Part shown: piece after piece, positions 19,545 to 21,478 of the stretch
Layout: each line of letters opens with the position of its first letter
Numbering within the stretch: the first letter of the stretch is position 1
From: Escherichia phage ZX4221
Length of the DNA stretch: 64,000 bases
Sequence record: OR498728.1
Reading direction: 5' to 3' (one strand)
Position numbers and translations under genes: made by a program
Notes under the pieces: model-generated
The model's database searches: none
What the model saw: the letters and a program-made list of their open reading frames with translations, nothing else
Told to the model about the DNA's origin: nothing

Positions 19545-19593
19545 AATGACCTCAAAGTTATATTAAATTTTGTATTACATTGAGTATAAAAAT

Positions 19594-19632
19594 AAGCTAT
19601 AACACCTGACTTGTCAACAGACTTTATAGCTT
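19594..19632. promoter_or_regulatory. palindromic element in upstream region of minus-strand gene
   Basis: AAGCTATAA ... TTATAGCTT inverted repeat enclosing TTGACA (minus strand). Confidence 0.35.
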
Positions 19633-19661
19633 ATTTGGCAGATTTTTTATAAGGTTACTGC

Positions 19662-19727
19662 CATCCTTCCATACCAAACCTCACCTGACCTCGCCTAACC
19701 CTACCTTACCCCACCATACAGCACCTT
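19662..19727. repeat. pentamer-periodic C/A-rich array (ACCNN-like)
   Basis: ACC recurring at about 5 nt spacing; G-poor on plus strand. Confidence 0.6.
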
Positions 19728-19764
19728 ATTAAAACACCCTGTTTAAAGACCTTTTAAAAAGGTA

Positions 19765-19790
19765 AGTCTCATTTTAATGTAGCTGAGACT
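19765..19790. repeat. conserved hairpin copy 1 (AGTCTCA-loop-TGAGACT)
   Basis: 7 bp stem, loop TTTTAATGTAGC, followed by AACTACCCATAC; recurs at 19896 and 21279. Confidence 0.6.
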
Positions 19791-19801
19791 AACTACCCAT
19801 A

Positions 19802-19856
19802 CCTCACCCTACCAGACCCTACCAGACCAGACCTTACCCTACCAGACCCTACCGAA
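19802..19856. repeat. tandem pentamer array (11 x ACCNN)
   Basis: ACCCT ACCAG ACCCT ACCAG ACCAG ACCTT ACCCT ACCAG ACCCT ACCGA read directly. Confidence 0.7.
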
Positions 19857-19895
19857 CATCACTTAAAAACCCTCTTAGAAGACTCTTAAGTGATG
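19857..19895. repeat. inverted repeat ATCACTTAA...TTAAGTGAT copy 1
   Basis: 9 bp arms, about 19 nt loop; second copy at 21386-21424. Confidence 0.55.
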
Positions 19896-19923
19896 TAATC
19901 GAATTTTAATGTAGCTCCGATTA
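19896..19923. repeat. conserved hairpin copy 2 with compensatory stem (TAATCGa / TCCGATTA)
   Basis: same loop ATTTTAATGTAGC and same AACTACCCATAC tail as copy 1 but a different base-paired stem. Confidence 0.55.
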
Positions 19924-19932
19924 ACTACCCAT

Positions 19933-19981
19933 ACCTCACCTCACCCAACCATACCATGCCTTGCCAGACCGCACCTTACCT
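19933..19981. repeat. C/A-rich pentamer-periodic array
   Basis: CTCACCTCACCCAACCATACCATGCCTTGCCAGACCGCACCTTACC. Confidence 0.5.
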
Positions 19982-20011
19982 CATTAAAAGACCCTCTTAA
20001 AAGACCTTTTA

Positions 20012-20040
20012 AAAAGGAGCCTCCGAAGAGGCTACCTAGT
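20012..20040 (-). terminator. terminator-like hairpin for minus-strand gene 20045..20485
   Basis: AGCCTC-CGAA-GAGGCT; on minus strand followed by CCTTTTT. Confidence 0.5.
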
Positions 20041-20044
20041 CAAC

Positions 20045-20485
20045 TTAGAAAGGTTTTCTACGTTGCTTGTTAATGTTAGCTTTCATAGCAGCTAAATGGT
20101 TTTGCTGTTCAATCAGTCGTGAACGTTCTTGATGACTAAGCGCCATAGTGTTCACATTCTCAATTGCTTGAGTGGCTTGCTTTAAAGCTCGACCAATCTT
20201 ACCAGACATTTTGCGTTTTGCAATAGTTGCTTGATGCTTAGGTTCAACCACACGATAACCAACACCCATTGAAGCAACCAGGTAAATCTTCTCTTCTTTA
20301 AGAAGCTTTTCAATAAACTTCTCAAGTCGGTTTAGACGTGTAAGTGCATAAGCCTTCATTTCATCTTCGTACTTAACAATGTCACCTTGATAAGTTGGCT
20401 TCACAATACCTAAGAAGGTGTCCATCTCGGAATGTGATACAGTGTCGCCGTAACTAAACTTTGCTGCTAATGCTTTTGTATTCAT
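20045..20485 (-). CDS. hypothetical protein (repeat-flanked cassette gene 2)
   Basis: 146 aa, basic C-terminus; no motif recognised. Confidence 0.4.
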   Translation of the reverse strand: MNTKALAAKFSYGDTVSHSEMDTFLGIVKPTYQGDIVKYEDEMKAYALTRLNRLEKFIEKLLKEEKIYLVASMGVGYRVVEPKHQATIAKRKMSGKIGRALKQATQAIENVNTMALSHQERSRLIEQQNHLAAMKANINKQRRKPF

Positions 20486-20487
20486 AA

Positions 20488-21090
20488 TTAAACGTTACCT
20501 TCTGAAATAACTTCTACAGAAAAACGACCAAAGCGTGGACGCCAATCACCTACACCACAAAGGTTACCAGCATTTTCCAGAACCATCAGAAGTTCCTCTT
20601 TGGTGATTTGCTCTTCATCAAACATCAAACCAAACTCTACAGACCAGTCACGGAAGATTGGACGGTAGCTCATAACTCGTGCTGTACCAATCTTAACAGA
20701 CTTAGCATAGATAAAGTCTGGATTCTTAGCAAGTTCTTGTGGGTTTGCTGGACAGTTCTTGATAGTCATTGGGAAGACTACATCTGTCAGCATAATGGCT
20801 CGGTCAATTACCTTACCAAGTTTGTTGAGTTTTGCACCAGACTTGATACAAGCCTCAATCATCTCACCGTTCATAACAAAACCAAGTTGCTCATCGTAGT
20901 AACAAGAAGTTACCAGTTGGCTTTCTGCTAAGAGCGCATAGTCTTCGTCAGTCTTTTTACGTTTACTGGACAGAGACTTGTGATATTTTGTCAGAGGGTT
21001 TAATGGGTCTGACAACGTATCGTTATGGCTCAAGAAAGGACGAGTACCAGTGATTTTGATATTTAGCAGTTTCATAGCATTTAGCTCCAC
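20488..21090 (-). CDS. hypothetical protein (repeat-flanked cassette gene 1)
   Basis: 200 aa; no motif recognised. Confidence 0.4.
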
Positions 21091-21176
21091 ACTTTAGTTG
21101 ATTGTTAAGTTGTTTGTAAAGAACCCTCAACAGAAGACTCTTTAGAAACTTGGTAGATTTTTAACGTGGCTACTAC

Positions 21177-21238
21177 CATCCACCCACACCGTGCCACACC
21201 ACACCACACCATACCCAACTCCACCTAATCCTACCACA
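21177..21238. repeat. C/A-rich pentamer-periodic array
   Basis: CCATCCACCCACACCGTGCCACACCACACCACACCATACCC... Confidence 0.6.
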
Positions 21239-21278
21239 CCTTATTAAAAGACCCTCTTAAAGACCTTTTAAAAAGATA

Positions 21279-21304
21279 AGTCTCATTTTAATGTAGCTGA
21301 GACT
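21279..21304. repeat. conserved hairpin copy 3 (AGTCTCA-loop-TGAGACT)
   Basis: identical to copy 1, with the same upstream AAGACCTTTTAAAAAG and downstream AACTACCCATAC. Confidence 0.6.
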
Positions 21305-21316
21305 AACTACCCATAC

Positions 21317-21385
21317 CGAACCTCACCGCACCATACTACACCTGACACCACCTTACACCACCGCACCATACCTGACCGAGCTACA
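21317..21385. repeat. C/A-rich pentamer-periodic array
   Basis: CTCACCGCACCATACTACACCTGACACCACCTTACACCACCGCACCATACC. Confidence 0.55.
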
Positions 21386-21424
21386 CATCACTTAAAAACC
21401 CTTTTCAAAGACTCTTAAGTGATG
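21386..21424. repeat. inverted repeat ATCACTTAA...TTAAGTGATG copy 2
   Basis: matches 19857-19895. Confidence 0.55.
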
Positions 21425-21478
21425 CTGGTGAGTACCCGTTGGTTTATGCTGCTCAGTATACTCACCAAATTTTCTATG

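Follow-up and report, generated by a model that had tools for sequence, protein, structure and literature searches.

The Viral Interference Programmable Repeat (VIPR) system was described in two 2026 bioRxiv preprints (10.64898/2026.04.26.720920, and a cryo-electron microscopy study, 10.64898/2026.04.26.720927). It combines Vipr, a minimal RAMP protein with a single RRM, a glycine-rich loop and a thumb, and Vap, an accessory protein that is predicted to bind DNA, with guide RNAs (vrRNAs) of ~100 nt that carry 9-16 YNNGG repeats, in which GGY is conserved and NN hypervariable, followed by a constant 3′ tail of ~40 nt that contains a pseudoknot (10.64898/2026.04.26.720920, 10.64898/2026.04.26.720927). 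One Vipr protomer sits on each YNNGG repeat, burying the GGY bases and leaving the NN dinucleotides exposed; the filament that forms, with the 3′ pseudoknot as its cap, binds double-stranded DNA in the pattern NNxNNx (the “1-nt skip rule”), and target binding silences transcription, an effect that Vap1 enhances (10.64898/2026.04.26.720920, 10.64898/2026.04.26.720927). In the type example, Escherichia phage SUSP1, which has one vrRNA upstream and three downstream, the vrRNAs are intergenic transcripts of ~100 nt that co-purify with Vipr and repress transcription of their targets; for the SUSP1 clade, which the authors define by >90% Vipr identity, the natural guide targets lie in an E. coli satellite phage and are read with the 1-nt skip code (10.64898/2026.04.26.720920, 10.64898/2026.04.26.720927). 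Here we analyze a stretch of 64,000 nucleotides from Escherichia phage ZX4221 (OR498728.1; the window, whose positions are used throughout), in which two minus-strand genes lie between two repeat-rich non-coding blocks. We conclude that this locus is very probably a type II VIPR system of the SUSP1 clade and that its repeat blocks are vrRNA guide genes, two upstream and three downstream of the protein genes.

Membership in the SUSP1 clade follows from the Vipr sequence: it is identical to SUSP1 Vipr at 191 of 195 positions (97.9%; the differences are N18A, P119Q, V189I and I190M), above the >90% of the clade definition. The Vap1 proteins are identical at 145 of 146 positions (99.3%). The two loci also share the order of their parts (ligase, vrRNA or vrRNAs, vipr, vap1, vrRNA array, 127-residue gene), YNNGG arrays, the sequences of three of the tail types described below (T1, T2 and T4) and the targeted satellite family. 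They differ in that the window has 2+3 rather than 1+3 vrRNAs, a further tail variant (T3) and two long 5′ hairpins, in their guide (NN) sequences, and in the surrounding genome, which is that of a Felixounavirus here and not of a Suspvirus; one of 20 related genomes does show the 1+3 pattern published for SUSP1. An earlier sequence-only reading of the region had taken the two genes and both repeat blocks to be one unit of unusual architecture, which our analysis bears out. It had also suggested a specially regulated locus, and there we depart from it: rather than plain regulatory repeats, the blocks appear to be five guide-RNA genes for the RAMP protein encoded between them.

Repeat units and their tails

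The two blocks comprise five units of ~125-147 bp each, with register starts (plus strand) at 19674, 19807 and 19929 in block 1 and at 21189 and 21336 in block 2. When the entire 64-kb window was scanned for GG at a 5-nt phase, exactly five arrays were found, all of them at this locus and all on the minus (gene-sense) strand. The C/A-rich pentamer arrays of the sequence-only reading are thus real as five period-5 arrays, but the informative strand is the minus strand, on which they read YNNGG. On that strand each unit consists of 11-14 YNNGG pentamers, a conserved tail and sometimes a U-run; an example of a tail is GUAGUU-AGUCUCA-GCUACAUUAAAA-UGAGACU. All of the motifs listed in the sequence-only reading were found where it had placed them, far from chance expectation. 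AAGACCTTTTAAAAAG has three exact copies (19746, 20001 and 21260) and, with up to 3 mismatches, 18 occurrences versus 2.2 expected; AACTACCCATAC also has three exact copies (19791, 19923 and 21305); the hairpin loop TTTTAATGTAGC occurs exactly three times; and the pair ATCACTTAA...TTAAGTGAT is present in two copies versus 0 expected. This last pair is the 9-bp inverted repeat of the sequence-only reading, which is present but accounts for just the outer portion of a longer RNA stem of 18-19 bp, G.U pairs included. The long 5′ hairpins may be processing sites, plausibly for RNase III. The AT-rich motif corresponds to the U-run that follows the T1 tail together with the first part of a spacer common to all units. 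This shared spacer could hold a weak promoter (TTAAAA-18-TTTAAT), and the U-run with the AAAAGGTCTT spacer would form a vrRNA terminator that overlaps the weak promoter of the next unit.

Comparison of the window with 20 related genomes gave a set of 92 units with four positional tail types. Over these 21 genomes the pentamer consists of Y (T 0.89, C 0.11), two N positions and two G positions (0.89 and 0.98, respectively). There are 72 unique arrays among the 92 units, and four of the five arrays in this window are absent from the 20 other genomes. The tails follow position: T2 is always found on the final unit before vipr, and T4 always on the final unit of the locus. Their hairpin stems covary between units, with AGUCUCA/UGAGACU, AAUCGGA/UUCGAUU (with a G.U pair) and UGGUAG/CUACCA found at the same position. 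Because the segment that precedes the hairpin is complementary to its loop (GUAG/CUAC, GUGG/CCAC or AAGG/CCUU), the tail is predicted to form an H-type pseudoknot. Among 33 unique tails, 131 of 132 cells of the pseudoknot stem are canonical, with compensatory double changes at three of the four pairs, as are 196 of 198 cells of the hairpin stem. An Rfam search of positions 19000-22000 returned only sub-threshold chance matches and no match to a CRISPR repeat.

Vipr, Vap1 and their homologues

Neither the 195-residue nor the 146-residue protein had a match in Pfam, and PHROGs searches with both returned only families of unknown function. The larger protein has >500 homologues of ~190 residues. 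Structure prediction had been proposed as a check in the sequence-only reading. The AlphaFold2 model of Vipr, built from a 36-sequence alignment, has a predicted local distance difference test score (pLDDT) of 94.9, and a Foldseek search of the PDB with this model gave a top 50 dominated by Csm3/Cas7 proteins from effectors of types III and VII, together with Cas6 and Cmr1 (E-values down to 4e-5, template modeling scores of ~0.5; the top Csm3/Cas7 matches have E-values of 4e-5 to 1e-3). Vipr is therefore predicted to adopt a RAMP fold of the Cas7/Csm3 type, with a C-terminal segment that resembles the RAMP glycine-rich loop (G-loop). The residues through which Vipr reportedly contacts GGY and the skipped base (H17, K33, E71, M72, R138, C173, D177, W178 and R179; 10.64898/2026.04.26.720927) are all kept at the same positions in the window's Vipr. 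Position 175 is a valine in both this protein and SUSP1 Vipr, although the text of the paper refers to T175.

The sequence-only reading placed the larger gene at 20488-21090, with a GTG start. The most likely start is instead the ATG at 21075, which yields 195 residues and agrees both with how SUSP1 is annotated and with the residue numbers used in the cryo-electron microscopy paper. A weak sigma-70-like site (TTTACA-18-TAAAGT) at 21091-21120 on the minus strand, directly 5′ of the vipr ribosome-binding site, might be vipr's own promoter.

With the Cas7/Csm3 filaments of Class 1 CRISPR-Cas systems, VIPR shares the RAMP fold with its G-rich loop and thumb, the use of one protomer per fixed RNA segment with periodic base flipping, and a variable guide capped by a conserved handle. 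They differ in several ways: the VIPR period is 5 nt with GGY read sequence-specifically, whereas Cas7/Csm3 use 6 nt with no sequence preference; VIPR pairing is non-contiguous (two bases paired, one target base skipped); and VIPR has no repeat-spacer array, cas1/cas2 or nuclease and is encoded by a lytic phage. At the present locus there is no CRISPR-Cas repeat-spacer array with identical direct repeats, and the sole cas-like protein is the single RAMP.

The vap1 gene lies directly downstream of vipr. A single-sequence AlphaFold2 model of its product reached a pLDDT of only 68 and gave weak matches to winged-helix regulators (E-values of 0.2-0.4). BLASTP found no similarity between Vap1 and the gene-B analogue of a distant VIPR locus, so the accessory genes are not demonstrably homologous across those loci.

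For Vipr itself, homologues from metagenomic phages that are 37-40% identical have gene-sense arrays of 7-18 NNGGC/NNGGT repeats alongside, which terminate in a T-run immediately ahead of the following gene. Since even these homologues are flanked by sense-strand arrays, the association of protein and array appears to be ancient. In two distant VIPR loci (L023, 3040-3384 and 3824-4005; L022, 2407-2501, 3060-3160 and 3620-3720) we observed NNGGC repeats, in arrays that run straight into a T-run and the ribosome-binding site of the next gene. The inter-array elements of these loci are unlike the Felixounavirus tails, and the tail architecture therefore differs there.

Guide matches in an E. coli satellite

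The baseplate-hub gene of the window (5821-6618, plus strand) has 90-95% DNA identity over ~550-760 nt to an E. coli gene annotated as “phage baseplate protein”; of 5,426 complete E. coli genomes, 474 carry this gene. That gene stands at one end of a chromosomal island of ~11-15 kb, inserted at yciI-tonB, ymdF-wrbA or yecN-yecD, that also contains recombinases, an HNH endonuclease, a tape-measure gene and small unknown genes. We identify this island as the satellite of the preprint, and the 90-95% identity of the hub genes suggests that helper phage and satellite have recently exchanged sequence.

We scanned ten copies of the satellite with all guides of the clade that have at least 10 repeats (n = 56), using a threshold of at least 80% NN match. 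With one base skipped per repeat, 40 of the 56 guides had such a match, versus two with no skip, none with a skip of 2 and one with a skip of 3; in the chromosomal DNA flanking the first six satellite loci, just one of 56 guides reached the threshold. Thus, the guides of the window and its relatives match the E. coli satellite under the 1-nt skip code only. The window's own five guides match it at 83-86% of their NN positions, and 0-1 of 300 shuffles did as well (Table 1). No site within the window reached 80% for any of the five. Exact-pattern scans of IMG/VR with the d2 and d3 guides and of GTDB genomes with d2 found no match; exact matching is too strict here, because the satellite matches carry 2-4 mismatches. 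Vipr homologues of 45-50% identity (P0030 and P0022) led to unrelated temperate and lytic phages and not to the satellite. In the proposed mechanism, Vipr would polymerize along the vrRNA repeats, and the phage's guides would silence a satellite that parasitizes it.

Two of the ten satellites carry a vrRNA gene of their own (a YNNGG array, a T2-like tail and a terminator) without vipr, and the T2-like tail has a compensatory stem change. Felixounaviruses that have lost vipr and vap1, about half of the total, likewise keep the locus promoter and 1-2 vrRNA-like units (seen in the four genomes described below), and guide genes may circulate independently of the protein. The up2 guide matches the array-tail junction of a satellite vrRNA gene at 20 of 24 positions, versus 17 of 24 for its own T2 tail. 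Orphan guide RNAs could conceivably load onto Vipr supplied by a co-infecting or helper VIPR-positive phage, with up2 as a counter-measure that silences the satellite's guide gene, although we consider this scenario doubtful.

Several points weigh against the assignment of the locus to VIPR or against parts of it. The mechanism rests on two preprints from one laboratory, and for the five RNAs of this phage both expression and binding by Vipr are predictions from sequence. None of the five guides is matched perfectly anywhere in the ten satellite copies, and the up2 match may be inflated by shared composition, because its site is a G/T-rich periodic sequence. Finally, the Vap1 fold is of low confidence, and the model is compatible with the published prediction of DNA binding without proving it.

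Table 1. Features of the candidate VIPR locus, best satellite matches of its guides, and related elements in satellites and in relatives that lack vipr
Feature	Position	Strand	Details
Sigma-70-type promoter heading the locus	21455..21482	minus	TTGACA-16-TATACT; scored 11/12
5′ leader hairpin	21386..21424	minus	ATCACTTAA/TTAAGTGAT inverted repeat; 18-19 bp RNA stem
vrRNA up1	21270..21380	minus	14 YNNGG repeats 21311-21380; T1 tail 21279-21310 (pseudoknot and hairpin); U-run 21270-21278
vrRNA up2	21151..21243	minus	12 repeats 21184-21243; T2 tail 21151-21183
vipr	20488..21075	minus	195-residue predicted RAMP protein; fold model and identity to SUSP1 Vipr
vap1	20045..20485	minus	146-residue accessory protein; identity to SUSP1 Vap1; phrog_5926 match
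Intrinsic terminator after vap1	20009..20033	minus	AGCCTCTTCGGAGGCT, then U-run; terminator also given as 20033-20018
vrRNA d1	19897..19983	minus	11 repeats 19929-19983; T3 tail 19897-19928
Second copy of long hairpin	19857..19896	minus	between d1 and d2
vrRNA d2	19756..19856	minus	12 repeats 19797-19856; T1 tail 19765-19796; U-run
vrRNA d3	19636..19728	minus	12 repeats 19669-19728; T4 tail 19636-19668
AT-rich hairpin	19589..19636	minus	embedded sigma-70-type promoter (19617-19589) for the next gene
Best match of up1	satellite tape-measure gene		24/28; NN on codon positions 1-2; shuffles as good 0/300
Best match of up2	satellite-borne vrRNA gene, L035 6676-6710		20/24; shuffles as good 1/300
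Best match of d1	satellite intergenic site, L041 7230-7261		19/22; shuffles as good 1/300
Best match of d2	satellite tape-measure gene, L044 10879-10913		20/24; shuffles as good 0/300
Best match of d3	small hypothetical satellite gene, L043 7490-7524		20/24; shuffles as good 0/300
Satellite vrRNA genes	L035 6640-6790; L043 ~4745-4860	minus	
Remnants in vipr-less relatives	L036 1445-1876; L038 1245-1528; L039 1245-1679; L040 1245-1522		

Locus boundaries, variation and alternative readings

The window derives from a FelixO1-like myovirus (Felixounavirus) and is 93-97% identical to many FelixO1-like phages of E. coli and Salmonella. The genes around the locus are all on the minus strand, and the order of transcription is DNA ligase, upstream block, 195/200-residue gene, 146-residue gene, downstream block and 127-residue gene; the neighbors are DNA ligase/polymerase on one side and nucleotide-metabolism genes on the other. 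The strong promoter that heads the locus is also annotated in phage AYO145A and is kept in relatives that lack vipr. The promoter within the AT-rich hairpin, likewise annotated in AYO145A, serves the gene at 19161-19544, and with this hairpin the locus ends on its downstream side. A basic 62-residue open reading frame (21479-21667, minus strand; phrog_5428, a family of unknown function) lies between ligase and the head promoter. This slot is variable, as the open reading frame is missing in SP116 and the sequence there is different in skuden.

At the far end of the window, positions 63000-64000 are non-coding and dense in short iterons (CTTGTTAR, CTGTTAAGA and CTTAACA); TGTTAA/TTAACA occurs there 17 times per kb, versus 1.6 on average over the window, and there are many TRF arrays of period 10-12. 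Identical strings of 14-22 nt recur in the E. coli satellites (63950-63971 equals L031 8361-8382, and 63883-63898 equals L035 7170-7185), and this stretch may be a regulatory or origin region mimicked by the satellite.

Among ~259 related phage records, vipr is kept in ~117 and absent from ~140. In the four vipr-less relatives that we read (SP116, phiWec177, skuden and JH2), the deletion junctions lie inside repeat units, and these genomes still have the head promoter and the 5′ hairpin, along with one or two vrRNA-like units whose GG positions are decayed in part; phiWec177 and skuden share the same decayed array. Junctions of this kind, leaving partly decayed units, imply that vipr and vap1 were lost by recombination between units. 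Relatives that have vipr carry from 3 to 5 units. The locus is therefore not invariant among its relatives: its boundaries are polymorphic, both in the junctions of vipr loss and in the number of units.

Such variation is also what one would see if the locus were a mobile or exchangeable gene cassette, as the sequence-only reading proposed, with the repeats acting mainly as recombination substrates for moving or swapping the two-gene module: the module is present in some relatives and absent from others, the junctions fall within the repeats, and the unit number varies. T4-type phages offer a parallel in their promoter-stem-loop (PeSL) repeats, promoter-plus-hairpin units that flank exchangeable small gene modules. 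The resemblance is that small gene modules, present in some genomes and absent from others, lie between repeated non-coding units, but PeSLs have neither a periodic array nor a dedicated binding protein. Moreover, no different gene pair was seen between the repeats in any relative compared, and the polymorphism looks like loss rather than exchange. A fixed GGY, free NN positions and a covarying pseudoknot would be unexpected for mere recombination sites, and distant homologues retain the association of protein and array. The polymorphism that the sequence-only reading anticipated is thus real, but the repeats appear to be guide-RNA genes and not cassette boundaries, and we regard an exchangeable cassette as very unlikely.

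A regulatory reading, in which an oligomeric protein bound to the 5-nt-periodic GGU array in cis would control a hairpin/U-run terminator and autoregulate the two genes, was the first that we considered, because ~11 G-containing repeats at 5-nt spacing suggest an oligomeric RNA-binding protein such as TRAP. Upstream of the genes, 11-14 periodic G-rich repeats are indeed followed by a hairpin and a U-run, and in the Bacillus trp leader the TRAP oligomer similarly reads ~11 short G-containing repeats, spaced by ~5 nt, in otherwise unstructured RNA. TRAP, however, is a closed ring with an unrelated fold that acts by attenuation in cis, whereas VIPR forms an open RAMP filament that targets DNA in trans. 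An attenuator of the TRAP type would be confined to the leader, with mutually exclusive antiterminator and terminator structures under the control of the bound protein. Of the five units, three come after the operon terminator; the NN dinucleotides are hypervariable and fit foreign DNA by one particular code; and the published RNAs are discrete molecules of ~100 nt that guide DNA binding. A TRAP-like attenuator was dropped after the RAMP fold and the literature came to light, as was a Rho-loading site on the C-rich plus strand, and we now find the attenuator scarcely credible. That the repeats are DNA-level iterons of a replication origin or a centromere-like site would suit their short, periodic nature and the location between DNA ligase/polymerase and nucleotide-metabolism genes, but the strict strand polarity of the arrays relative to transcription (also seen in distant lineages), the hairpin G.U pairs that can form only on the sense strand, and the lack of any known initiator- or ParB-type protein in the Pfam and PHROGs searches of the two proteins leave this idea with a negligible probability.

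As a VIPR system, the locus belongs to a kind that is already known, having been described in April-June 2026, and the window adds no new kind. It does provide a VIPR locus recovered independently from raw sequence, and the 1-nt-skip rule is reproduced on a different set of phage genomes. It also documents variation within the clade: five guides here, frequent loss of the protein genes, and orphan guides that then decay. Helper phage and satellite, the latter with 474 carriers among 5,426 complete E. coli genomes, make a concrete pair that can be tested experimentally. More broadly, VIPR has been proposed to be an ancestor-like relative of the CRISPR RAMP effectors, and it represents a new RNA-DNA code that is both non-contiguous and reprogrammable.

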